Of a stretch of 64,000 bases of DNA, positions 3,038-41,367 are shown piece by piece. Position 1 is the stretch's first letter, and the number at the start of each line of letters is the position of its first letter. The DNA lies in the IMG/VR virus record IMGVR_UViG_3300032294_001887, positions 1 through 64,000 of that record, one strand, 5' to 3'. The position numbers and the translations under genes are program-made. The notes beneath the pieces were generated by a model that saw nothing but the letters and a program-made list of their open reading frames with translations, made no database searches and was not told where the DNA came from. Source of the DNA: a virus.

Positions 3038-3785
3038 TATACATTGTGTTTGTACAACACCAAATATTTACCCAAGTTATAGTCACAACTGGGAAAATTT
3101 TCCTAAGGATAAAAGAAAATTAACTTGGGTGACCGATATAACAAATGACCCGTCTTTTAATCTTGGTTTTAATTTTACTGAACAAGATATTCGAAAAGAG
3201 TTTAATTTTGATACTGAAGTGAGTAAAAGACACTATTGGAATTGTCAGGGAAATAGAAATATTATTTGGTTTTATGCTCACTTACGGATGTTATATTTTT
3301 ATATTAAAAATCCAAATTATGATTTTTATTGGTTTTTTGATGATGACATTAAAATAAATAATTGGGATGAGTTTTTTATAAAAACTGACAAGGATGATTC
3401 GGATTTTTTATCATATTTTTGTTTTAAAAAAGATGGAGTTACTTCACAAATAAATGTCCCTGTTATTGACGGCAGAACATTCTCTAAAAATCTTTGGTTT
3501 GAAAGATTTCCGGGGGACGGAGATATTCTACCTGAAAATACAAAGGACATGTTTGGTTCATTTTTTCCAACAACAAGATTTTCAAACAAATCTTTATCAA
3601 AGTTATTGGAGATTCATAATGAAGGATTTCATGGGTACTCTGAAGGATTTGTCCCCACTATATTAAACAAATATGGATTTAAATTATCCTCATTAATAAA
3701 CCCGGATAATACTTCAAATTATTTTGACGTAAATGAAGTTGATATCCTACATAAACATATTAAAGTAAATTGGGAATGGATATAA
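3030..3785 (+). CDS. Putative glycosyltransferase
   Basis: YDFYWFFDDD DxD-type motif; overlaps both neighbours in GT cluster. Confidence 0.5.
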   Translation: MNNIHCVCTTPNIYPSYSHNWENFPKDKRKLTWVTDITNDPSFNLGFNFTEQDIRKEFNFDTEVSKRHYWNCQGNRNIIWFYAHLRMLYFYIKNPNYDFYWFFDDDIKINNWDEFFIKTDKDDSDFLSYFCFKKDGVTSQINVPVIDGRTFSKNLWFERFPGDGDILPENTKDMFGSFFPTTRFSNKSLSKLLEIHNEGFHGYSEGFVPTILNKYGFKLSSLINPDNTSNYFDVNEVDILHKHIKVNWEWI

Positions 3786-4573
3786 ATAACCCTGTTATAG
3801 TAATGGCTCTATATGATATTGGTAGAGAAAATTGGAATAATTTTAGAATGTCGTACCATACGTATGGTTGGTGGATGAGAAATACATTATCATTAGATTC
3901 TAATATTGTAATTTACACGGAACCCAAATTTGTTAATGAATTAACAAATTATAGGAAAGAATTTGACCCTAATCTTGAAAAAACCATTTTTGTTGAAAAT
4001 GAATTAAGTGATTTACCAACATATCAAAAATACTACGATTCTTTATCAAATTTAATGTTTTCTGATAATTTTAAATCCAAAGTAAGTTTTCCGGATGTCC
4101 CTGAAATGTGTCAACCTTTATATAACATAATAATGTTTAATAAAGTTTTTTTCCTTAAAGACACCATAGAAAAAAAATATTTTAATAACGATATGGTTAT
4201 TTGGGCAGATGCTGGAGGTTTAAGGGAAGATATAAATTCGTATAAAAACAATAAATGGCCTAATATTTCAAAAATTAAATCTTTAGACCCAAATAAAATA
4301 ACATTTTTTAGTCACAACCAAGACTTTACTATTAACAATAAAGAATTTCATAGTTTATCTCAAATTAGGAATATTCAAGGAACCTCATTTCTGTTACCAT
4401 CACATTTGATTGATAATCTATTAGATTTGGTGATTAACACAATTGATGAATCAATTAATGATGGGTATATTGGTAGCGATGAGAAAATATTTGACATTTG
4501 TTATACTAAAGAAAAAAATTTATTTCACTTAATAAAATCTGACTGGAGAGAATATTTTAATATATTATTGTAA
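3776..4573 (+). CDS. HtrL/YibB (WlaTC)-family glycosyltransferase-like protein
   Basis: VMALYDIGRENW, YNIIMFNKVFFL, WADAG, GSDEKI; ATG 3776 preferred over TTG 3770. Confidence 0.7.
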   Translation: MDINNPVIVMALYDIGRENWNNFRMSYHTYGWWMRNTLSLDSNIVIYTEPKFVNELTNYRKEFDPNLEKTIFVENELSDLPTYQKYYDSLSNLMFSDNFKSKVSFPDVPEMCQPLYNIIMFNKVFFLKDTIEKKYFNNDMVIWADAGGLREDINSYKNNKWPNISKIKSLDPNKITFFSHNQDFTINNKEFHSLSQIRNIQGTSFLLPSHLIDNLLDLVINTIDESINDGYIGSDEKIFDICYTKEKNLFHLIKSDWREYFNILL

Positions 4574-5079: not shown

Positions 5080-7797
5080 ATGATATCAAACGAAGAGATA
5101 GAATCATTCTTGCATGGTAACGACCCTGAAGAATTTATTGTTGCAATTGAATACGATTATCGTGAAAATTGTATCTACAAAATTAAAGAAATCCCCGGAA
5201 AAGGAAAAGAAATCCGTAAAGACACATTTACCCCATTCGCATGGGTGGGAGATTTGCGTGGAATTAAATTCTACAATGACTCCAAAGGTGCTCAGAAAGA
5301 AGCAATGACCAAACATGGTATTGTTATCGAAAAATTAGAAACACATGGTAACGAGAGATTAGAAAAAGGATTAACCTACATCGTTAAATCTCTTAAAGGA
5401 TACCGAGAACTCATTCAGTTTTTTAGAGAGGGTGGTTGTGACCCGTGGGGTGAAAAGACCAAAGATAGGGTTATGATTCTACCTCCGGTGGAACAATACT
5501 TAATTTCCAAAGAGAAAAGACTTTTCAAAGGATTCGAGAATTACGATGAAGTTACCCGACTTGTATTCGACTTAGAGACGACCGCTCTTGAACCAAAGGA
5601 TGGTCGTATATTCATGATTGGAATCAAAACCAATAAAGGATACCACCGAGTTATTGAGTGTATGGATGAGAACGAAGAAAAGAATTCCATAATTGAGTTT
5701 TTCAAGGTAATCAACGAACTTAAACCAAGTATTATCGGGGGTTATAACTCCGCAAACTTCGACTGGCATTGGATATTTGAAAGATGTAATATCTTGGGAA
5801 TTGACCCCAAGAAAATATGTAGGTCATTACACCCCGACCATTCATTTACAAGAAAAGATAGTATGTTGAAATTAGCAAATGAGGTCGAGAATTTTACTCA
5901 AACTTCAATTTGGGGTTACAATGTAATCGATATTATTCATGCGGTTCGTAGGGCTCAAGCAATTAACTCAAGTATCAAGGCTGCGGGTTTGAAGTATATT
6001 ACCAAATACATTAACGCCGAATCACCAAGTCGGGTTTATATTGACCATTTGGATATTGGACCATTCTATGTAAAGAAAGAAGAGTATTGGTTAAACACCC
6101 AAAATGGGAATTACCGAAAAGTAGGACAAGACCTGAAGATTGATGAGATATGTGAAGGTAGAAAAGATGTTTATATCAAAACAACCGGAGATAACCTTGT
6201 GGAGAGATATCTCGATGATGACTTGGATGAAACCTTAAAAGTTGACCAAGAGTTTAATCAAGGTTCATTCCTACTTGCGGCGATGATTCCAACAACCTAT
6301 GAGAGAGTTTCTACTATGGGAACCGCAACTTTGTGGAAAATGCTCTTATTAGCTTGGTCTTACAAACACAACTTAGCAATTCCTGAAAAACAAGGTAAGA
6401 CAGATTTCGTGGGAGGTCTTTCGAGATTACTAAAAGTGGGATATTCCAAAGATGTTCTCAAACTTGACTTCTCGTCTCTATATCCATCAATTCAGTTGGT
6501 TCACGATGTTTTCCCTGATTGTGATGTTACCGGAGCAATGAAAGGAATGTTAACTTACTTCCGTAATACTCGTATTAAGTATAAAAATTTAGCATCAGAA
6601 TATAAAAATATTGATAAAAAGAAATCGGAGTCATATGGTAATAAACAATTACCGATTAAGATATTCATTAACTCGTTATTCGGAGCGTTATCTGCTCCTC
6701 AGGTTTTCCATTGGGGGGATATGTATATGGGAGAACAAATTACCACAACCGGGAGACAATACTTAAGACAAATGTTGTTTTTCTTCAAAAAAAGAGGTTA
6801 TACTCCTCTTGTTTGTGACACTGACGGTATGAACTTTTCTTTACCTGTGGGAGGTGTTGAAGATAGAAGATATATTGGTAAAGGAAATAATTGGTTGGTT
6901 GAGAAAGATAAAGTGTATACTGGTTACGATGCGGATGTTGCCGAATATAATGATATGTTTATGAAAGGTGCTATGGGTCTTGACTGTGATGGGACTTGGG
7001 TTTCGTGTATTAATTTAGCAAGAAAGAATTATGCGACTATGGAACATAATGGAAAAATCAAATTGACGGGTAATAGTATTAAATCTAAAAAACTTCCATT
7101 GTATATTGAGGAGTTTTTAGATAAAGGTATTAAGATGTTACTGGATGGTGATGGTAAAGCATTTGTGGAATATTATTATGAATACTTACAAAAGATTTAT
7201 GATAAACAAATTCCTTTAAGTAAGATTGCTCAAAGAGCTAAGGTGAAGTTAACTATCGAAGATTATAAAAAACGATTAACAGAGAAAACTAAGGCGGGTA
7301 ATAGTATGTCACGCATGGCTCACTTAGAACTGGCAATGCAAAATAATTTGAAAGTAAGTTTAGGTGATGTTATAATGTATGTTAATAATGGTCTTAAAGC
7401 GTCGCATGGTGATGTCCAAAAAAAGGGAGATGGGGTTCAGATAAATTGTTATATGTTGGATAAAGATATTTTGGATAATAATCCTGATTTAACCGGTGAT
7501 TATAATGTTCCTAGAGCGATAGTTACCTTTAATAAAAGAATTGAACCACTTATGGTGGTTTTTAAAGATGAAGTTAGAAATAACTTAATTGTAAATGAAC
7601 CGGAAAAAAGAGGTATATTTACAACTGCTCAATGTGAGTTAATTAACGGATATCCTTTAGGTGATGGAGACCAAGATAGTATTGAGGATTTATTAACATT
7701 ATCCGATGCGGAAATTAAATATTGGGAAAGACGAGGAATGAATTCAAATTATATTTACGACTTTGCTGAGGAAGGATGGGAAGAACATATTAAATAA
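5080..7797 (+). CDS. polB: Family B DNA polymerase with 3'-5' exonuclease
   Basis: ExoI DLETT, ExoII YNSANFD, motif A DFSSLYPS, motif B KIFINSLFG, motif C DTDG. Confidence 0.95.
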   Translation: MISNEEIESFLHGNDPEEFIVAIEYDYRENCIYKIKEIPGKGKEIRKDTFTPFAWVGDLRGIKFYNDSKGAQKEAMTKHGIVIEKLETHGNERLEKGLTYIVKSLKGYRELIQFFREGGCDPWGEKTKDRVMILPPVEQYLISKEKRLFKGFENYDEVTRLVFDLETTALEPKDGRIFMIGIKTNKGYHRVIECMDENEEKNSIIEFFKVINELKPSIIGGYNSANFDWHWIFERCNILGIDPKKICRSLHPDHSFTRKDSMLKLANEVENFTQTSIWGYNVIDIIHAVRRAQAINSSIKAAGLKYITKYINAESPSRVYIDHLDIGPFYVKKEEYWLNTQNGNYRKVGQDLKIDEICEGRKDVYIKTTGDNLVERYLDDDLDETLKVDQEFNQGSFLLAAMIPTTYERVSTMGTATLWKMLLLAWSYKHNLAIPEKQGKTDFVGGLSRLLKVGYSKDVLKLDFSSLYPSIQLVHDVFPDCDVTGAMKGMLTYFRNTRIKYKNLASEYKNIDKKKSESYGNKQLPIKIFINSLFGALSAPQVFHWGDMYMGEQITTTGRQYLRQMLFFFKKRGYTPLVCDTDGMNFSLPVGGVEDRRYIGKGNNWLVEKDKVYTGYDADVAEYNDMFMKGAMGLDCDGTWVSCINLARKNYATMEHNGKIKLTGNSIKSKKLPLYIEEFLDKGIKMLLDGDGKAFVEYYYEYLQKIYDKQIPLSKIAQRAKVKLTIEDYKKRLTEKTKAGNSMSRMAHLELAMQNNLKVSLGDVIMYVNNGLKASHGDVQKKGDGVQINCYMLDKDILDNNPDLTGDYNVPRAIVTFNKRIEPLMVVFKDEVRNNLIVNEPEKRGIFTTAQCELINGYPLGDGDQDSIEDLLTLSDAEIKYWERRGMNSNYIYDFAEEGWEEHIK

Positions 7798-7824
7798 AAA
7801 CCCGACTTTTACTAAAAACTGATA

Positions 7825-7832
7825 TATTTATA
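7825..7832 (+). promoter_or_regulatory. TATTTATA promoter motif of cassette 1
   Basis: Begins 11 nt before ATG 7836. Confidence 0.6.
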
Positions 7833-7835
7833 GAT

Positions 7836-7991
7836 ATGGGAAGACCTAAAAAAGAAGAAACCGATAAAAAAATTAAAATTGGTATAACAATAGACCGAGA
7901 ACTTTATAGTTTAATTAAAAAAGACAACTTAAAACCTTCCCGTATCATTGAAAAATTGGTAAGAGAATATTATGGAAACAAAGATTTGTAG
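7836..7991 (+). CDS. 51-aa ribbon-helix-helix-like DNA-binding protein (not in ORF track)
   Basis: MGRPKKEETDKKIKIGITIDRELYSLIKKDNLKPSRIIEKLVREYYGNKDL; alternating beta strand then two helices; paralog at 39589. Confidence 0.75.
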   Translation: MGRPKKEETDKKIKIGITIDRELYSLIKKDNLKPSRIIEKLVREYYGNKDL

Positions 7992-8625
7992 TAAATGTAG
8001 GGAAGATAAAAATATTTGTAATTTTTATAAAAATAGAAATGAGTGTAAGGAGTGTAAAAAGAAAAAATCTATGTTAGATTATAATTCTAATAAAGAAAAG
8101 TATAGAACATCCCAATTATTATATAGAGAAAGTAATAAGGAAACAATAAATGAGAAAAACCGAATTTATTATTATAATAATCACACCATATTAAGAGAAA
8201 AACAAAAAAAATATAGGGATGAAAATATCGAAAAAGAGAAGGAAAGAAATAAATCATGGAGAATTAATAATAAAAATTTAATTAATAATTATAGAGATAG
8301 TAGGAGAAAAAATGAGCCATTATATAAGATAACAGAAAATATTAGGAGAAGAATCAATAAATTCTTTAAATCGAAAAATATTGAGAAAAATAATAAAACA
8401 TTTGATATTGTAGGGTGTTCTCCCGAATTTCTTAAAGAATATATTGAAAATAAATTTACCGAAGGGATGTCTTGGGTTTTAATGGGTAAACATATTCATA
8501 TAGACCATATTATACCTTTATCTTCTGCTAAGACAAAAGAAGATATTTATAAACTTTGCCACTACACAAATTTACAACCTTTATGGGCTGAGGATAACTT
8601 AAAAAAAAGTTCTAAAATTATCTAA
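7972..8625 (+). CDS. Zn-finger / 15-aa repeat / HNH-type (EndoVII-like) endonuclease
   Basis: CSKC...CKEC; HIDHIIPL...HYTNLQPLWAEDNLKK. Confidence 0.85.
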   Translation: METKICSKCREDKNICNFYKNRNECKECKKKKSMLDYNSNKEKYRTSQLLYRESNKETINEKNRIYYYNNHTILREKQKKYRDENIEKEKERNKSWRINNKNLINNYRDSRRKNEPLYKITENIRRRINKFFKSKNIEKNNKTFDIVGCSPEFLKEYIENKFTEGMSWVLMGKHIHIDHIIPLSSAKTKEDIYKLCHYTNLQPLWAEDNLKKSSKII

Positions 8626-8957
8626 GAACTTTTTAATCCGTCCGAACTGAGGATATACCAGTTACCTGCACAAAATCTAAATTCGATACAAGCGTATTTG
8701 TCGGCAACTACTTCATCAAATTCCTCATCTATTTTACCCACATCGGGTTTTATTGTGACATCGGTCATTGATTTAACTACGATGTGGTCTGTAGTTGTTG
8801 AGTCCAATATTACTACCGATTTCGCAACACTTCTAACCACTATACACCCTTCTCCATTTGTTTTATATTCACTCTCGGATATTACTGCAACCTCAGAGGT
8901 TTCAATAAATTCTCCGTTAATTAATCTTTTTGAAGGTATTGTTCTTAAAATTCCCAT
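8622..8957 (-). CDS. Hypothetical beta-rich protein
   Basis: 111-aa ORF starting 4 nt after the neck gene stop. Confidence 0.6.
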   Translation of the reverse strand: MGILRTIPSKRLINGEFIETSEVAVISESEYKTNGEGCIVVRSVAKSVVILDSTTTDHIVVKSMTDVTIKPDVGKIDEEFDEVVADKYACIEFRFCAGNWYILSSDGLKSS

Positions 8958-10098: not shown

Positions 10099-10106
10099 TA
10101 TAAATA
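10099..10106 (-). promoter_or_regulatory. TATTTATA motif (minus strand) for neck gene
   Basis: TATAAATA on + strand upstream of 10082. Confidence 0.6.
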
Positions 10107-34900: not shown

Positions 34901-36569
34901 TAATGAACTTATAAAGAAAACTAGTAACGTGGAATTACAACAACTAATTTACTCAATATGTTATGTTAATACGTTCCCTCAGAAAGGTGCTAAGTTTGAA
35001 GGGTATAACAACAATTATGCTAATATAACATTAACTAATGACTATGGGTATAGTGCGGGTGATTTCATACAAAAAAAATGTGCGTGCGTTAATATCTCAA
35101 ATTCAACTGGTAACCCAACATCACAACCAATTGCCATTTTTGAAACAATTGGTAAGTTTTTTGATTTTATGATTGCTAGATTAAGGGCAAATGTTAATAG
35201 AGTTTATGGTGAAACCAATATTGGTGTTCCTAAATATTATGTATGTTATTGGCCGGTATCAAAAATTTCGGAATCATATTACGATAGTCATTTGAGTGAA
35301 TATAGTGAATTAATAAAAAGATTTAATGCTTCTTTTGATGCTGCCAAAGAAGTTGGAATAAATGTTGCAAAACCTATAACACCAACCACCCCAACCACAA
35401 CACCAGTACCAAATAATTTAAATACAACCACAACGGTTGTTCCATCTTGTCCTTCACCTACCATAACATCATTCTCACCATTAACAGGTATTAGTGGAAC
35501 TATATTAACAATAGTTGGTAAAGATTTAGACCAAATAACGGGAGTTACAATTAATAATGTTACAACAAATAGTAACATAACGATTAATAATCCATTTAAT
35601 ATTAGTGTTGTAGTACCATTTAGTAATACACCGGTTCAACAACAAAATCCAATAATAGTTAGAGGAGTTAATGGAAATGCTACGAGTCAAAGTGGATTTA
35701 CATATAATCCAGCTCAGGTTACACCAGTCCCAAGTAATTCTACGAATACAAATGTACAACCACAACAATCCGGGCCTGTTACTTTAAATGCTCAGACACA
35801 AACATCTCCGGGTGGAGTCACTCAACAATTAACGGTTTCGGTTAACCCACAAGCTGCGGCATTAAACACATGGGTTTTAGAACAAAATGTCACAATGATT
35901 ATTTCTGTTTACAATAATTCCGTTGTTAACAATGTTACAACGCAAACATTAAATAGAACGGTAACAACAACGGTATCTAATTATGTTTCGGGTAATGTGT
36001 TCACCATGACTTATAATAATGTTGCAGATATGTTAGTTAATAACCCAATACCTCAATTCCAAACAGCACCTATTGAAGATGGTCAAACCGCTAATATTAA
36101 ATTTACGGTTACTGCGGTTCCTGTGGATAAAGTTGAAAACCCTCAAAATGTGTCACAAACATTTAATTTCGCATTTACACCAATATCCTCAACAACACAA
36201 ACAAAACCAGGTGCATTATTTAAAGTTTCCGAAACATATGGAGGAAATGTACCAAATTTTAATGGTAGTGATTACTACAATATTAAAAAACCTACTGGAG
36301 GATACATTACATACCAATTTACTTGTACAAAACTAATTTCTAAGGGAAAAGTTGAAGTATATTCAATACCTGACCTTGTTAAACAAAATATTACGATAAC
36401 CAATAACTCAGGCACAAAATACACAAATGTTATTGAATTTAATACTTTAGGAACATTCCAACTTTCGGTTGAGTACACATCAGAAGATTATGTGGGAACC
36501 AATACAACTTTATTAAGCTTTGGTAAACCAATTTCTGTATTTGCAACATCACCACCATTCACTTTATAA
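28977..36569 (+). CDS. Giant baseplate hub-like protein (2530 aa) with C-terminal IPT/TIG-like domain
   Basis: LGNALLQP...GPYFITEVNHNI...FETTFNG hub motif; PTITSFSPLTG..GTILTIVG. Confidence 0.6.
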   Translation: MAGNLVGDNSGNILVEFDYNNIIVVDPNKTIDNLRNIRERLVDHENLVMFANLEAEVVPRTKLSVGGSPEDRNRTISVAKMNFLRPTEEKFLTTGYYDELTGKDTKNGLGVNQLQEQIIDPKDGTKPYSKMVVTDPGGTATDNGLLGITSISVRTNSSFVPSVSMTLEDIQGRALFQLGDNSPYSAFFNLPYCPFYLTLKGYYGQAIRYQLNLKTFNARFNTFSGNYLIELEFVGYKFNILNEISMGSLLATPHMYSKRFNISKSPTSPEGGSNKNIEAQSKSNAISKESTISSDNVTTELVTEKGYQKIIEVYSEYKAKGLISPDFPELTLTQLMNKLLTFEQSVIDRYTKVDVEPLTNIRAYNETLVNYFNEIYGNKDSWFNIYMNPNPIILNGSGQEVYVFKQEFINNPTKKEEAKTLLSGYTTEFNKLLADNPTLGISSQTPIKNSITYNTMVKNVIFSEIDLVKTTTSQTGVLQPTSEDIKRINELLTSAFTPSLEKEASNSKLETSVGNVVNPPIFYFSEFQTLLSKMEAESNKKLSEVETILTAGLAKKIQENIGFSPTVRNISAVIMASAEAFIRLLDDVHTNAWNVKYDPIRQLAILDNPSSAPGTDTVDNFKISETAQSSNQGLVNGKIPVYPWPQFFVETPDDKKGRFQLKYLADPSVVNITKGYLYEKWPEVEFVEEYMKGLTQKFNPPISQPPTDAQNTTNIINVNAIEYPSQGIAYVNKEEVKFFYEIWERQFLTSNYSGFIRGNSNQLNQLTNLIVSAETNNIVTGLGVSSPFLALKLRNYNLTSQDYPSFLSSISNQGTGRAYQDYIRDFYVTPYIRNLTSNSFNILSLTDLGREPQTSTKSQGLLQLVNNAPNEPLVIDTYPFTDPTWVSTNMANSTTNTKNFVYNTNRVLTVFEDRDVISNFNSVYDYSKNRPVTNFSYLKVSNPTNQITSIGLSGFYNIRKDPTFFIPTEGFVNYFSPSKNLSVETTTSMLNTPYFINAIQNGVYNWRRKDPHPYTQAAYLFINSLPLASLKEKYKTLDASSDLDYIATCFKKFGAIHKMPYAWVLKMGSIWHRYKTYKASNVDILDSVWKDFNYKENFDPIASADTKTYTFNFDGTNNITLQNTSNNINRIQTGFYPKVINDFNVFYNGYDLYSGYTNDEIQKSVDNGVKVYNFTDSNINIQSGTSYSNIQTWSVVIPNGIFSLTNVGSVCNPSNNTLSDTYYIAPSFGTQLNQVSVECISNNVQVCPFINNPSIYNGSVRLLWSAPNYGYFNNSEISKPQPDSYVNKIKTGSEQQSSFRLLMDKDYSNIEEIFSVFSKDILDKFEQEFLNFSKPVANIDLGPQVVVPIGVSPTDPNGLFKNFQYLFRNLMEVNSNNPSVTTAEYFKTIGEAQLTVFSNTIKSFLEYDVILKYGNPAQYNRRVMDSYLAQGGGNNPIVDPIVFNPYVRNSLPSKLNTTTLAASKSSNPQAWFELETQVGFSTITNLKYTDSGSYITDFFIDNDIEFTQNNVILLVPIIKMFATQKLYTPTLSRNEFKNRLQIYLNSTTEFQSNLLNLILSQVRGNLPDQQELPERVIQSSIDGQQSKVENYEVFKALNDKWVAGSDYTSKTLFEDVMFLDRASRNIGDTILVDIFDLKDTLSENSLNMEMSVFTFLSGILIKNKFNIMPLPAYVNFYNIQEVDGTTTAQADGSLEFADNMWGTFLNVDYRKSGPKMICFYAGMPSSYLALPKGNSRFRDDAFDLRRASDNPLIENQTNKKDWAVSNKCVGFNVDFGIRNQNIFTSLQVSMDSGKATSETIETQLNMVNQASGRNVATQNVGLYNLYKQRSYGCQVQSLGNALLQPTMYFNLRHVPMFNGPYFITEVNHNITPGNFETTFNGVRQGIYDLPSIDSFLQSVNQNLLTQIETIVKNRKDSVTGKAITNIDKSKYITQTANNTAAAQNSCIVNLQGTPYVTWADVQTSVSTTITPQEFANELIKKTSNVELQQLIYSICYVNTFPQKGAKFEGYNNNYANITLTNDYGYSAGDFIQKKCACVNISNSTGNPTSQPIAIFETIGKFFDFMIARLRANVNRVYGETNIGVPKYYVCYWPVSKISESYYDSHLSEYSELIKRFNASFDAAKEVGINVAKPITPTTPTTTPVPNNLNTTTTVVPSCPSPTITSFSPLTGISGTILTIVGKDLDQITGVTINNVTTNSNITINNPFNISVVVPFSNTPVQQQNPIIVRGVNGNATSQSGFTYNPAQVTPVPSNSTNTNVQPQQSGPVTLNAQTQTSPGGVTQQLTVSVNPQAAALNTWVLEQNVTMIISVYNNSVVNNVTTQTLNRTVTTTVSNYVSGNVFTMTYNNVADMLVNNPIPQFQTAPIEDGQTANIKFTVTAVPVDKVENPQNVSQTFNFAFTPISSTTQTKPGALFKVSETYGGNVPNFNGSDYYNIKKPTGGYITYQFTCTKLISKGKVEVYSIPDLVKQNITITNNSGTKYTNVIEFNTLGTFQLSVEYTSEDYVGTNTTLLSFGKPISVFATSPPFTL

Positions 36570-36579
36570 CATAACGATA

Positions 36580-36587
36580 TATTTATA
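36580..36587 (+). promoter_or_regulatory. TATTTATA motif
   Basis: Upstream of 36603. Confidence 0.6.
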
Positions 36588-36602: not shown

Positions 36603-36827
36603 ATGAATTTAAAAGCAACATTAGACAACTATCTTGGAAAATCGGTTAGATATTCTGAAGAGGACAATGGAGACGGAACTAAACAAGTTTGTGATTTAGA
36701 TACTGGTGATTGTTATGTGGTTAGAGAAAGAGACGGTCTGATTGAAAGAGCCGGACATCAAACAACTGCCAATAGAAGAGTTAGAGTTGAAACTTCAAGA
36801 GGAATTAAACAATTATTAAACGGATAA
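36603..36827 (+). CDS. Hypothetical protein
   Basis: 74-aa ORF with own promoter motif. Confidence 0.7.
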   Translation: MNLKATLDNYLGKSVRYSEEDNGDGTKQVCDLDTGDCYVVRERDGLIERAGHQTTANRRVRVETSRGIKQLLNG

Positions 36828-38530: not shown

Positions 38531-39538
38531 ATGGCAATAAAGAAAAATGATTTCAGTTCGTTGAAGAAAAAGTTCTCAACATCTGCAAAATATAAACCAC
38601 AAAGATTTTTTGATTTGGGTCCTGACTTCTTGGATGCGGTAGGATTACCAGGTCCGGCAATTGGACATTTGAATATGTTATTGGGTCACTCTGATACGGG
38701 TAAAACAACGGCATTAGTTAAAACTGCGGTTGACGCTCAAAAGAAAGGTATTCTTCCTGTATTCATTATTACAGAACAGAAATGGAGCTTTGAACATGCT
38801 AAACTTATGGGATTCCAATGTGAAGAAGTTGTTGATGAAGAAACAGGTGAACTTGATTGGGATGGATTCTTTATAATAAACAATAATTTTGAGTATATTG
38901 AACAGATTACAGATTACATAAATGAATTATTAGATGCTCAAGAGAAAGGTGAGTTAGATTATGATTTGTGTATAATGTGGGATTCGGTAGGTTCAATTCC
39001 GTGTAAAATGACTTATGACGGAAAGGGAGGTAAGCAACATACGGCAGGTGTTCTATCAGATAAAATTGGTATGGGAATCAACCAAAGAATATCAGGTTCT
39101 CGTAGAGCAGATTCAAAATATGAAAACACTTTAGTAATTGTTAACCAACCATGGGTGAGTTTACCTGATAACCCTTTTAGTCAGCCTAAAATTATGTCTA
39201 AAGGAGGTAATGCGGTTTGGCTTAACTCATCTTTAGTTTTCCTATTTGGAAATCAAAAAGATGCTGGTACTTCTAAAATTACCGCTACAAAAGATAAACG
39301 CTCAATTAAATTTGCAATACGAAGTAAGGTGTCTGTCTTAAAAAATCACATATCAGGATTAGGTTATGATGATGGTAAAATAATTGTTACGCCACATGGA
39401 TTTTTGGCTGGTAAAGATTCTACTGAAGAAAAATCTAATATTGAAAAATACAAAAAAGAGTATGCGGAATATTGGAAAGACATTATTGGTGTTGATGGTG
39501 ATTTTGATTTGAAAGAAGAATTTGAGGAAGATAAATAA
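38531..39538 (+). CDS. recA: RecA/UvsX-like recombinase
   Basis: Walker A GHSDTGKT, Walker B IMWDSVG, VIVNQ, KGG. Confidence 0.85.
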   Translation: MAIKKNDFSSLKKKFSTSAKYKPQRFFDLGPDFLDAVGLPGPAIGHLNMLLGHSDTGKTTALVKTAVDAQKKGILPVFIITEQKWSFEHAKLMGFQCEEVVDEETGELDWDGFFIINNNFEYIEQITDYINELLDAQEKGELDYDLCIMWDSVGSIPCKMTYDGKGGKQHTAGVLSDKIGMGINQRISGSRRADSKYENTLVIVNQPWVSLPDNPFSQPKIMSKGGNAVWLNSSLVFLFGNQKDAGTSKITATKDKRSIKFAIRSKVSVLKNHISGLGYDDGKIIVTPHGFLAGKDSTEEKSNIEKYKKEYAEYWKDIIGVDGDFDLKEEFEEDK

Positions 39539-39577
39539 AAAAAGTTGTAATTATTCTACTTTTATTATATTTGCAGA

Positions 39578-39585
39578 TATTTATT
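39578..39585 (+). promoter_or_regulatory. TATTTAT motif of cassette 2
   Basis: Begins 11 nt before ATG 39589; TATATTTG (Bacteroidota -7-like) at 39566-39573. Confidence 0.55.
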
Positions 39586-39588
39586 AAT

Positions 39589-39741
39589 ATGGGAAGAAAG
39601 AAAAAAGAAGAAATTGAAAAAAAAGTTAAGATTGGAGTTTCGGTTGACCCCGAGCTTCCACAATACTTTAAAGACAAATCTATTAATCTATCTTCTCTTG
39701 TTAATAAGTTGTTAAAAGAATATATTAAAAATGGAAACTAA
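39589..39741 (+). CDS. 50-aa ribbon-helix-helix-like protein (not in ORF track)
   Basis: MGRKKKEEIEKKVKIGVSVDPELPQYFKDKSINLSSLVNKLLKEYIKNGN; paralog of 7836-7991. Confidence 0.78.
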   Translation: MGRKKKEEIEKKVKIGVSVDPELPQYFKDKSINLSSLVNKLLKEYIKNGN

Positions 39742-40348
39742 AGTTTGTAGTAAATGTTCTGTTGATAAACCACTATTGAAATATAATGTATGTTCTAGAG
39801 TGAAAGATGGGAGGAAAGCTGAATGTAGAGAGTGTCAAAGACTTGGAACTAAAGAATATAAGTTTAAAAATAAGGAAAAAATAAAAGAATATAATTCTAA
39901 ATGGAATTCCGAAAACAAATCCTATTATCAAGAATATCGTAAAATATGGGAGGTTAAAAATTATGATAAAGTTTTAGAAAAAAGAAAAAGATTCAAAGAA
40001 AAAAATCCTAGTTATATTAACAATTATAATAAACAAAGGAAAAAAGAAGATATCTTATTCAGGCTTATATCTGATATGAGAAATTCTGTTAATCGATACC
40101 TGAAATATAGGTCAAAAAAAACTTTCGAAATCGTTGGATGTACTCCGGAATTTCTTAAGGAACATTTAGAAAAACAATTTGTTGATGGCATGACTTGGGA
40201 GAATAGGGGTGAATGGCATATTGACCACAAAATTCCATTATCTTCTGCGAAAACAGAAGAAGAACTTTACAAGTTGTGTCATTATACAAACCTTCAACCA
40301 TTATGGGCTGAAGAAAATTTGAAAAAAGGTAACAAAATTATTGTCTAA
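39731..40348 (+). CDS. Zn-finger / 15-aa repeat / HNH-type endonuclease
   Basis: CSKC...CREC; WHIDHKIPL...HYTNLQPLWAEENLKK. Confidence 0.85.
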   Translation: METKVCSKCSVDKPLLKYNVCSRVKDGRKAECRECQRLGTKEYKFKNKEKIKEYNSKWNSENKSYYQEYRKIWEVKNYDKVLEKRKRFKEKNPSYINNYNKQRKKEDILFRLISDMRNSVNRYLKYRSKKTFEIVGCTPEFLKEHLEKQFVDGMTWENRGEWHIDHKIPLSSAKTEEELYKLCHYTNLQPLWAEENLKKGNKIIV

Positions 40349-40365: not shown

Positions 40366-41367
40366 TTGAAAAAAACATTATTAGTCGATGGAAACAATGC
40401 TCTTTTAATAGGGTTCTACGGGGCTAGAGATTTATACAACAATGGTGAACACTTAGGTGGAATTTACCATTTTATTAATACCTTAAGAAAATTTCTTGAA
40501 GAACATAATCACGATAAGGTTATCGTCTTTTGGGATGGAGAATCAAACTCATCCATTAGAAAGTCCATTTACCCCCAATATAAAGCGAACCGAAGACAAG
40601 ATATGAACGAGTTCAAATACGAGTCGTATCTTCAACAAAAAGTTCGTGTAAAACAATACTTGGAAGAAATCTTTGTTAGACAGGTTGAGATGGTTGATAA
40701 CGAAGCCGATGACCTCATGGCATTTTACACACAAATCGCAACCGATGAGGATATTATAATCTTCTCTGCGGACAAAGACCTCACCCAACTTATTTCCGAA
40801 CGAGTAACCATTTATTCACCAATTTCAAAACAATATTACAAGAATGGTGATATGATATCAATTAATAAAGTTGATATTCCCCACTATAATGTGTTGTTAA
40901 CCAAAATCTTTACTGGTGACAAATCCGATAACATTTATGGTATTGAAGGATTGGGAGAAAAAACATTGATTAAATATTTCCCTCAAGTGCAGGAGAAACC
41001 ATGCACTATCGAAGAAATCTTGGACTACGCACGAAATATCGAGCAAAAGAAACCTATTAAAACTCTGAATAATATTTTGACTGGTAAGACAAAATTGTCT
41101 ATACTTGGAGAAGAGTTCTATAATACGAACAAAAAAATTGTTGACCTTAAAAACCCCCTAATTACAGATGACGGAAAAGACTTAGTAGAACAGATTTTAA
41201 CAGACGATATAGACCCTACAGATAGGGGATATAAAAACTTAATGAGAATGATGATGGAGGATGGTCTCTTTAAGTATTTACCAAAAGACGATGACGCTTG
41301 GGTAAATTTCCTCAAACCATTTATGAAATTAACAAGAAAAGAAAAAAGAAACACAAACAAAAATTAA
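40366..41367 (+). CDS. 5'-3' exonuclease (PolI N-terminal / T4 RNase H-like)
   Basis: LLVDGN, WDG, YKANR, EADD, SADKDL.QL, GDKSDNI.GI.GLGEKT; TTG start. Confidence 0.92.
   Translation: MKKTLLVDGNNALLIGFYGARDLYNNGEHLGGIYHFINTLRKFLEEHNHDKVIVFWDGESNSSIRKSIYPQYKANRRQDMNEFKYESYLQQKVRVKQYLEEIFVRQVEMVDNEADDLMAFYTQIATDEDIIIFSADKDLTQLISERVTIYSPISKQYYKNGDMISINKVDIPHYNVLLTKIFTGDKSDNIYGIEGLGEKTLIKYFPQVQEKPCTIEEILDYARNIEQKKPIKTLNNILTGKTKLSILGEEFYNTNKKIVDLKNPLITDDGKDLVEQILTDDIDPTDRGYKNLMRMMMEDGLFKYLPKDDDAWVNFLKPFMKLTRKEKRNTNKN

Follow-up and report, generated by a model that had tools for sequence, protein, structure and literature searches.

A mobile HNH homing-endonuclease cassette carrying a candidate Arc-like repressor gene in an uncultured freshwater jumbo phage

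The window analyzed in this study, a stretch of 64,000 nucleotides (nt), originated from an uncultured freshwater jumbo phage and is part of a 74.8-kb IMG/VR record (IMGVR_UViG_3300032294_001887) rated 25% complete. It contained two paralogous cassettes, at 7805-8625 and 39558-40348, each composed of a bipartite leader, an open reading frame (ORF) for a ribbon-helix-helix (RHH)-like protein of 50-51 amino acids (aa), and a gene for a Zn-ribbon HNH nuclease beginning within the 3' end of the RHH ORF. No third copy was found across the 74.8-kb record. The cassettes and their flanking genes are arranged as follows.

5080..7797, plus strand: family-B DNA polymerase gene (polB), left flank of cassette 1, with Pfam DNA_pol_B and exonuclease domains
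7798..8621, plus strand: DNA inserted relative to the empty site, occupying the entire gap from the polB stop to the stop of the convergent 111-aa ORF
7805..7810, plus strand: ACTTTT box of leader 1 (-31), cassette-specific, candidate operator
7824..7832, plus strand: ATATTTATA box of leader 1, late-promoter-like, ending 3 nt before the ATG
7836..7991, plus strand: RHH1, gene for a 51-aa ribbon-helix-helix-like protein
7972..8625, plus strand: HNH1, gene for a 217-aa endonuclease with Zn ribbon, helical repeats and HNH domain (PHROG_1035, E 1.1e-13)
8622..8957, minus strand: 111-aa ORF with function unassigned, right flank of cassette 1, kept in all 80 polB loci
38531..39538, plus strand: UvsX-like recombinase gene, left flank of cassette 2 (PHROG_97, E 1.4e-11)
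39558..39563, plus strand: ACTTTT box of leader 2 (-31)
39577..39584, plus strand: ATATTTAT box of leader 2 (-12)
39589..39741, plus strand: RHH2, gene for a 50-aa ribbon-helix-helix-like protein
39731..40348, plus strand: HNH2, gene for a 205-aa endonuclease with Zn ribbon, repeats and HNH domain (PHROG_1035, E 9.5e-21)
40366..41367, plus strand: 5'-3' exonuclease (FEN/RNase H-like) gene, right flank of cassette 2 (Pfam 5_3_exonuc_N, E 9e-31)

This arrangement agreed in all details with the initial annotation, which had reported two units of leader, small ORF and nuclease. The 40-nt leader pattern described there matched the window exactly twice (7805-7844 and 39558-39597, 0 mismatches), with ACTTTT beginning at -31 and ATATTTAT at -12 from both ATGs, and gave no match in 100 dinucleotide shuffles even when three mismatches were allowed. 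At both sites the 50-51-aa ORF overlapped the nuclease start in the +1 frame, the ATG of HNH1 (7972) being located 20 nt inside RHH1 and that of HNH2 (39731) 11 nt inside RHH2. The stop codon of HNH1 overlaps that of the convergent 111-aa ORF. RHH1 and RHH2 were 44% identical (E 3e-7), and HNH1 and HNH2 were 43% identical overall; the last 75 aligned residues of the nucleases shared 54 identities, where 54/76 had been counted before, and the middle region was diverged (24/92). As for the flanking genes, designated polB and recA at first, the former was supported by Pfam, whereas the latter name was only approximate, as the gene is UvsX-like (PHROG_97) and a Pfam RecA match was sought and not found.

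The proposed mobility of the cassette was evaluated by comparing the polB and UvsX sites of relatives. The best 80 of 531 polB relatives in viral contigs were kept and their loci were mapped by tblastn; relatives of the recombinase were detected in hundreds of viral contigs, the best 80 were kept, and 76 loci were assessed at the UvsX/FEN site. At the polB/ORF-111 site, 69 of the 80 loci were empty with the two genes abutting, eight had RHH and HNH genes, and three had other small genes. The site was empty also in L007, the closest polB relative (97% aa identity), where the polB stop and the ORF-111 stop are 1 nt apart; the blastn alignment with this contig breaks at 7797 and 8615, and the window insert (7798-8621) replaces one base of this type of empty site. 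The UvsX/FEN site was likewise empty in 58 of the 76 loci, with 16-43 nt between the recombinase and 5'-3' exonuclease genes. It was filled by RHH and HNH genes in six loci (in one of these, L133, the RHH ORF was frameshifted), with two more cut by contig ends, by the nuclease alone in five, and by methyltransferase genes in seven. Matched pairs of empty and filled sites were obtained, namely L103 versus L090 and L087-089 versus L091/L094, and the junction bases of L103 (empty) and L090 (filled) were identical on both sides.

A scan with the RHH profile detected 80 further loci, which placed the family in at least 10 gene contexts, among them polB, SNF2 helicase/SOD, NUDIX, SmpB, DNA methylase and glycosyltransferases. 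The location directly after a core replication gene, regarded initially as a feature of the cassette, therefore applied to the window but not to the family with its many other neighbors. Complete relatives of 309, 326 and 318 kb harbored 5, 1 and 4 RHH copies, respectively. As most related sites were precisely empty and the same cassette occurred in at least 10 other contexts, the comparison identified it as a mobile element of the free-standing homing-endonuclease type, lying between genes and leaving precise empty sites in close relatives.

The occupancy was patchy even among close relatives, and the cassette was not fixed, which bears on the question of whether it benefits its carrier. The copies in the window adjoin essential replication and recombination genes, several copies exist per genome, and homing endonucleases mediate marker exclusion in T-even phages (PMC2988022); the cassettes might thus be domesticated weapons or defenses in phage-phage competition, an idea compatible with a regulatory role of the RHH protein. 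Besides the patchy occupancy, the decay typical of selfish elements argues against it, as the nuclease was frameshifted in L174, L191 and L222, its ORF was truncated in L180, and the nuclease body was deleted in L285/L305. No defense-family match was obtained with PADLOC either, and we regard such domestication as quite improbable.

Some further features of the two insertion sites were noticed. The recombinase/exonuclease junction appeared to be an insertion hotspot, where methyltransferases replace the nuclease cassette in some relatives (L092 3620-4615; L157/L160; L109 3384-3947), these being C-5 cytosine methyltransferases (PF00145, E 1.6e-56) or of the FkbM type. The polB/ORF-111 junction likewise accommodated unrelated small genes, a 106-aa ORF in L011 (~6712-7185) and L015 (~6504-7038) and a 72-aa ORF in L079 (~3597-3955). 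Between polB and its L007 counterpart, identity fell from 90-97% to 87 and 89% in the two 300-nt bins at the 3' end, which make up the final 600 nt. No clean signal of co-conversion was found at the 3' ends of polB, the gene being mosaic in many relatives. Within 5400-7797, for instance, L009/L010 were 94-99% identical to the window over ~900 nt and then ~70-85%, and this mosaicism in the alignments indicates frequent recombination inside the gene.

The small ORF had been assigned to the RHH type and predicted to be translated, and both assignments were borne out. The profile and alignment of 22 homologues displayed a basic N-terminal arm, a strand of the form K-x-K-x-G/A/S-x-S/A/T-x-D, D/N at position 20, and two helices, with K12, K14, S35 and L41 invariant. 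This agrees with the signature of ribbon-helix-helix (Arc/CopG/MetJ) sequences, a beta-alpha-alpha unit of ~45 residues whose N-terminal strand alternates hydrophobic and polar positions and whose helix 2 is N-capped by Ser/Thr. Pfam matches among the homologues were to CcdA (10/22, best E 1.2e-5), BrnA (10/22) and RHH_3 (4/22), and RHH2 matched Pfam CcdA (E 1.3e-4) and the PHROG Arc-like repressor (E 9e-4). The CcdA match was limited to profile positions 1-37 of 71, corresponding to the DNA-binding RHH, and the protein ends at residue 50. A profile search of the Protein Data Bank (PDB) gave a weak full-length match to the viral RHH protein 2kel (E 0.23). AlphaFold2 (AF2) predicted helices at 21-29 and 34-46 for the monomer with low confidence (predicted local distance difference test, pLDDT, 62), as may be explained by the obligate dimer expected for this fold.

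The family was widespread, with 1637 clusters in a set of 5.8 billion proteins, some of them named CopG/Arc/MetJ or CcdA by JGI. The Atlas clusters nearest to RHH1 were hypothetical proteins of ~51-55 aa, one of which was annotated as CcdA. A tblastn search of RHH2 against 50,697 cultured-phage records gave no match. A scan of genome contigs gave one spurious match inside a histidine kinase and one match in a contig of a metagenome-assembled genome (MAG) from Lac Pavin. In the latter contig (L250; JAPLJE010000793.1, 2226 nt), the RHH protein was 100% identical to RHH2 over residues 16-50; the contig was binned in a 'Deltaproteobacteria' MAG and is most likely a misbinned phage contig.

The ratio of nonsynonymous to synonymous substitution rates (dN/dS) was computed pairwise on the 43 codons outside the overlap. 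The values were 0.014, 0.024, 0.07, 0.11 and 0.21, with dS of 0.65-1.4 for close pairs; RHH2 and L091 gave 0.014 at dS 0.71, and RHH1 and L182 gave 0.11. Such low ratios in the codon alignments indicate translation of the RHH ORF and strong purifying selection on its product. This point also concerns the function of the ORF as a mere translated leader, which would bring ribosomes to the nuclease start in a host not using Shine-Dalgarno sequences and yield a functionless product. The conserved +1-frame overlap is in line with such a role, and Shine-Dalgarno-like sequences were not visible upstream of the window genes. The strong amino-acid conservation, with dN/dS down to 0.014, together with the four invariant residues and the matches to RHH-family profiles, makes a functionless product scarcely credible.

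The second gene of the cassette encodes a protein with an N-terminal CxxC...CxxC ribbon and the motif W-H-I-D-H...N-L-Q-P-L-W...N, in which H176, D178, H179, N200 and N209 were invariant in 22 sequences. The conserved His followed by Asn residues conforms in sequence to the catalytic motif of HNH (His-Me finger) nucleases. PHROG_1035 is annotated as 'endonuclease VII', and 16 of the 22 members matched Pfam HNH below the gathering score (best E 6e-4). The AF2 model of HNH1 (pLDDT 86) has a Zn-ribbon hairpin and then six helices of 14 residues each; its C-terminal core consists of a strand (176-179), a helix (189-196), a second strand (201-204) and a second helix (206-212). Fold searches with the model gave weak matches, the best one by Foldseek being a Cas9 HNH domain (E 0.35); VIA-align found CAD nuclease with Z 4.4 over residues 103-217, with the helical repeats dominating the search, and the PDB sequence profile weakly matched the Zn ribbon of Hpy99I (E 0.12).

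The six consecutive predicted helices occupy residues ~26-114 of HNH1 (window 8040-8310), between the Zn ribbon and the HNH domain. The length and sequence of this region varied greatly among cassettes with near-identical flanks, and the model suggests that it is a swappable DNA-reading array. The nuclease that occupies this site in L090 shared 84-85% identity with HNH2. When RHH2 and its leader were compared with those of L091, the DNA identity was 90-92%, and the RHH proteins were 98% identical with the paired nucleases only 47% identical; the middle of HNH2 was 30-56% identical to that of the L091 nuclease, and the catalytic domain 80-88%. Judging from these alignments, the repeat array has been exchanged behind a constant front end.

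Homologues of the nuclease were present in many cultured phages, annotated as 'endonuclease VII' or HNH and not accompanied by an RHH gene. Two of the homologous nucleases were overlapped by other small genes lying upstream. In Rhizobium phage 16-3 (L247, 1293-2253), a 69-aa Xre-type helix-turn-helix (HTH) protein (p099) overlaps the homologous nuclease p100 by 47 nt, and in the archaeal Methanosarcina virus MetMV (L249, 1305-2199), a homologous Zn-ribbon HNH gene is overlapped by that of a 65-aa protein with no family match.

From the side of the RHH gene, the pairing was strict. In all 79 RHH ORFs, including contig-truncated, frameshifted and truncated-ORF copies, a nuclease of the family started inside the RHH 3' end, in agreement with the initial description of a two-gene unit. 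Among 68 distinct cassettes the overlap was 20 nt in 52, 23 nt in nine, 11 nt in six and 29 nt in one, always in the same relative frame (+1), and the nuclease start was GTG in four. A programmed frameshift fusing RHH to HNH was considered and rejected, as the nuclease has its own start, the A-run at the junction would shift to the wrong frame, and a single fusion protein was found.

This strict pairing, and the conserved overlap with the fixed stoichiometry it probably entails, could also be accounted for if the RHH protein were a DNA-binding accessory of the nuclease, which aids site finding or cutting or coats the resident leader or junction for the protection of the carrier. An in-frame RHH-HNH fusion does exist as a singleton (P0123); among 5.8 billion proteins, however, such fusions were essentially absent. 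The nuclease moreover has its own Zn ribbon and the variable array of about six 14-residue helices as its likely DNA reader, the RHH protein remained nearly constant when this array was swapped, one RHH family serves at least 10 insertion sites, and nucleases devoid of RHH persist at the same site. An accessory function was thus judged unlikely.

In the nuclease tree, the RHH-less L098, L108 and L139/154 were sisters of the RHH-bearing L244, L091 and L114/L133. As the RHH-less nucleases were nested within RHH-bearing clades, the tree indicates that RHH has been lost at least three times, with the nuclease intact each time. In L098/L108 the leader was lost along with RHH and the nuclease starts 2 nt after the recombinase stop. 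The leader followed by an RHH start was also searched for by a DNA-pattern scan blind to the partner, which retrieved 53 RHH ORFs, 48 of them with the HNH family downstream and one cut by the contig end. Two others preceded different partners. In L303 (13750-14836), leader and RHH lie before a nuclease with Zn finger, NUMOD3 and a TnsA-like PD-(D/E)XK domain, and in L259 (7127-8145) before a 288-aa protein without a Pfam match. The remaining two, in L285 (3602-) and L305 (875-), were solo RHH remnants at the recombinase site with the nuclease body deleted; their RHH ORF runs into the apparent last nuclease residues, with the exonuclease gene directly after.

These observations are relevant to the alternative raised in the initial annotation, a toxin-antitoxin-like pair in which RHH neutralizes HNH as antitoxin, immunity or addiction factor, with or without transcriptional repression. 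Antitoxin families (CcdA and BrnA, each 10/22) were the best Pfam matches, the gene order, in which a small gene precedes and overlaps that of a potentially toxic nuclease, is the one of type II toxin-antitoxin operons, and similar small proteins have been named CcdA/HicB-like antitoxins by Perez-Hernandez et al. (PMC12619734). The CcdA match nevertheless ends at profile position 37, leaving no toxin-binding tail. In addition, the family gave rise to intact nucleases without RHH on at least three occasions, homologous nucleases of cultured phages have no RHH, RHH and its leader also stand before a nuclease of another catalytic class (L303), and an RHH protein 98% identical to RHH2 is paired in L091 with a nuclease only 47% identical to HNH2. 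PADLOC and NCBIfam searches for defense and toxin-antitoxin models gave no matches. A toxin-antitoxin role was therefore disfavored and is considered decidedly unlikely; among the other parts of the earlier interpretation, mobility, the two-gene unit, the assignment and translation of RHH, and the promoter-like leader were upheld.

The leader was examined for its two boxes. The TATTTAT box was present in 69 of 73 distinct leaders, and ACTTT was located 14-15 nt upstream of it in 64 of these 69. The distance from the end of TATTTAT to the RHH ATG was 4-5 nt in 60 of the 69 leaders and 14 nt in four. The second box of the leader equals TATTTATA, a motif recurrent in this phage, in support of the claim that the cassette has a promoter-like leader of its own. 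Indeed, about 10 genes in the window, most of them structural, have TATTTATA 14-21 nt ahead of their start codon, at the following sites.

10099-10106 (minus strand), 11673 (minus strand), 21715 (plus strand), 23615 (plus strand), 28636 (plus strand): TATTTATA sites
36580 (plus strand), 46670 and 46696 (plus strand), 49090 (plus strand), 58218 (plus strand): TATTTATA sites, continued

In relatives, GATATTTAT followed by 4-5 nt and ATG precedes unrelated genes. As TATTTATA and GATATTTAT precede structural and unrelated genes, the downstream leader box, TATTTAT(A/T), is probably a lineage-wide promoter element of the late type. TATTTATA as read is the reverse complement of the T4 sequence TATAAATA.

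The ACTTT box was not found at the other TATTTATA-headed genes in the window and relatives, the nearest case being an ACTTTA variant before a 74-aa ORF (36603). This absence makes it the best candidate for an operator. The variant belongs to a cassette-like bipartite motif, ACTTTA-N12-ATATTTAT, at 36561-36586 before the 74-aa ORF (36603-36827), which has no family match and lies just after a 2530-aa gene; the motif is conserved at the corresponding position of the complete relatives G001 and G002. In many subfamilies, ACTTT often constituted the right arm of an AAAGT-N3-ACTTT inverted repeat. Control by an RNA hairpin was also considered. RNA structure in leaders and RHH/HNH junctions gave z of -0.12, 0.31 and -0.08, and the copy-2 junction alone reached z -2.2, which was not conserved; hairpin control was rejected as the scores were about 0 and the lone junction was unconserved.

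Taken together, we propose with moderate confidence that the RHH protein is an Arc-like autorepressor of the cassette promoter, in a homing element equipped with its own expression module. In this view, the cassette is a free-standing HNH homing-endonuclease element that spreads between co-infecting related phages. Alleles lacking the cassette are presumably cut by the nuclease close to the insertion point and receive a copy of the element through recombinational repair. The module it carries would consist of the bipartite leader with its late-type promoter motif and the minimal Arc/CopG-like RHH protein. The latter most likely binds the leader, with the region of the ACTTT box as candidate operator, and represses the promoter, which would give a short, self-limiting pulse of nuclease. 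The constant +1-frame overlap of the two genes makes it probable that translation of the nuclease is coupled to that of RHH and kept at a lower level. DNA binding by the RHH protein, repression, translational coupling and cleavage specificity are inferred. A portable regulator is preferred to a nuclease-specific partner because of the intact RHH-less nucleases, the other partners in L303 and L259, and the layout with an Xre-type HTH protein in phage 16-3.

Several findings weigh against the autorepressor proposal. The evidence for the RHH fold is moderate in view of the low AF2 confidence and the weak PDB profile matches, and RHH1 itself had no Pfam or PHROG match. In L139/L154, which have no RHH, the TATTTATA box is retained and an intact nuclease with a GTG start follows it directly, so the repressor is not indispensable even with the promoter box. 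The AAAGT-N3-ACTTT repeat was mostly at p > 0.05 against shuffles in this AT-rich DNA, which demonstrates no operator statistically, and it was missing in window copy 1 and differently spaced in copy 2. In most leaders the TATTTAT box stops only 4-5 nt short of the RHH ATG; if transcription began as it does at late promoters of T4, the mRNA would have no leader or might even miss the RHH start, leaving the timing logic unclear. If the promoter does fire 4-5 nt before the ATG, the RHH message would be leaderless, and no such regulatory design has been described for homing elements. A more general extension of the autorepressor proposal is put forward tentatively, as a possibility that we hold to be rather less probable: leader and RHH may be a portable 'expression adaptor' for any homing nuclease, providing late promoter, repressor and translational landing pad, with swaps of the nuclease body or array retargeting the family.

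Homing endonucleases need enough expression to spread and too little to harm the carrier. The solutions in T4 are promoter-less cassettes, RNA hairpins, or an endonuclease doubling as its own repressor. The cassettes described here point to a third one, a separate ~50-aa repressor-like gene that moves with the nuclease together with a conserved leader, in jumbo phages of freshwater that are abundant and uncultured. The module of leader and RHH can be lost, left behind or joined to other nuclease types. The small gene is below common ORF cut-offs, and its annotation as 'antitoxin' can mislead counts of phage counter-defense genes. Moreover, the family provides dozens of naturally occurring nucleases, with exchanged helical-repeat arrays and known insertion sites, as useful material for studies of target change.

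The gene order resembles that of type II restriction-modification systems with C proteins, in which a small gene for a DNA-binding protein lies directly upstream of a potentially toxic nuclease gene and is often co-translated with it. By acting on their own promoter, C proteins set both the timing and an upper limit of nuclease expression once the system has entered a new genome. They are Xre-type HTH proteins with a methylase partner in the system, whereas the cassettes have RHH and no methylase partner; the closest structural analogue of the C-protein layout was p099 (Xre HTH) overlapping the nuclease p100 in phage 16-3. The antitoxins CcdA, ParD and BrnA resemble the cassette protein in having a DNA-binding RHH domain at the N-terminus and in the order of genes in the operon. 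Unlike the CcdA type, the cassettes have no C-terminal toxin-binding region and the nuclease is kept intact without RHH, and the partner, a known toxin in type II toxin-antitoxin systems, is a homing nuclease.

The free-standing HNH genes of T4 (mobA-E) share with the cassettes an intergenic location beside conserved genes, variable presence, and overlap with an upstream ORF. Late-promoter control and autorepression of its own late promoter by I-TevI were summarized by Edgell, Gibb & Belfort in 2010 (PMC2988022), as was overlap-based coupling of T4 endonuclease genes, the starts of mobE and segC overlapping upstream ORFs. The likeness to I-TevI thus extends to control by a late promoter and, as proposed here, to limitation of the nuclease by repression at the element's own promoter. 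In T4, however, repression is exerted by the endonuclease, as with I-TevI, and promoters are lacking from most free-standing genes, whereas the cassettes have a separate RHH gene and a bipartite leader. Like T4-type late promoters, the motif is an octamer of A and T that is found repeatedly a short, fixed distance ahead of structural genes, but its sequence, TATTTATA, differs from the T4 TATAAATA.

A ~50-aa Arc RHH protein that binds and represses promoters of the IS605 family was reported by Moon, Zedaveinyte, Wiegand & Sternberg in 2026, who also noted arc genes adjacent to homing-endonuclease genes (bioRxiv 10.64898/2026.09.24.754181). Both this Arc protein and that of the cassettes are ~50-aa RHH proteins encoded inside a mobile element beside its nuclease, and RHH2 has the weak PHROG match to the Arc-like repressor. 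The IS605 systems are bacterial transposons with TnpA/TnpB for which gene overlap was not described, whereas those studied here are phage HNH cassettes. The most similar case was in moraphages, freshwater jumbo phages of ~200-307 kb with predicted Bacteroidota hosts and T4-like structural and replication genes, in which CcdA/HicB-like antitoxin genes were associated with multi-copy PacI-like putative homing endonucleases and I-TevI-like regulation was proposed as one reading (Perez-Hernandez, Aldaroub, Barth & Aylward 2025, Arch Virol 170:253, PMC12619734). The setting is the same, a small RHH-type 'antitoxin' gene and a Zn-containing HNH-type nuclease in several copies per genome, and by the description in that paper the moraphage module and the window cassette are very probably the same module. 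Its treatment there is one paragraph, which does not describe the leader, gene overlap, empty sites, selection, RHH loss or partner exchange. The basic association of RHH with homing nucleases is thus already in print, and what is added here is not a new principle but the anatomy of the module and the population evidence for it.

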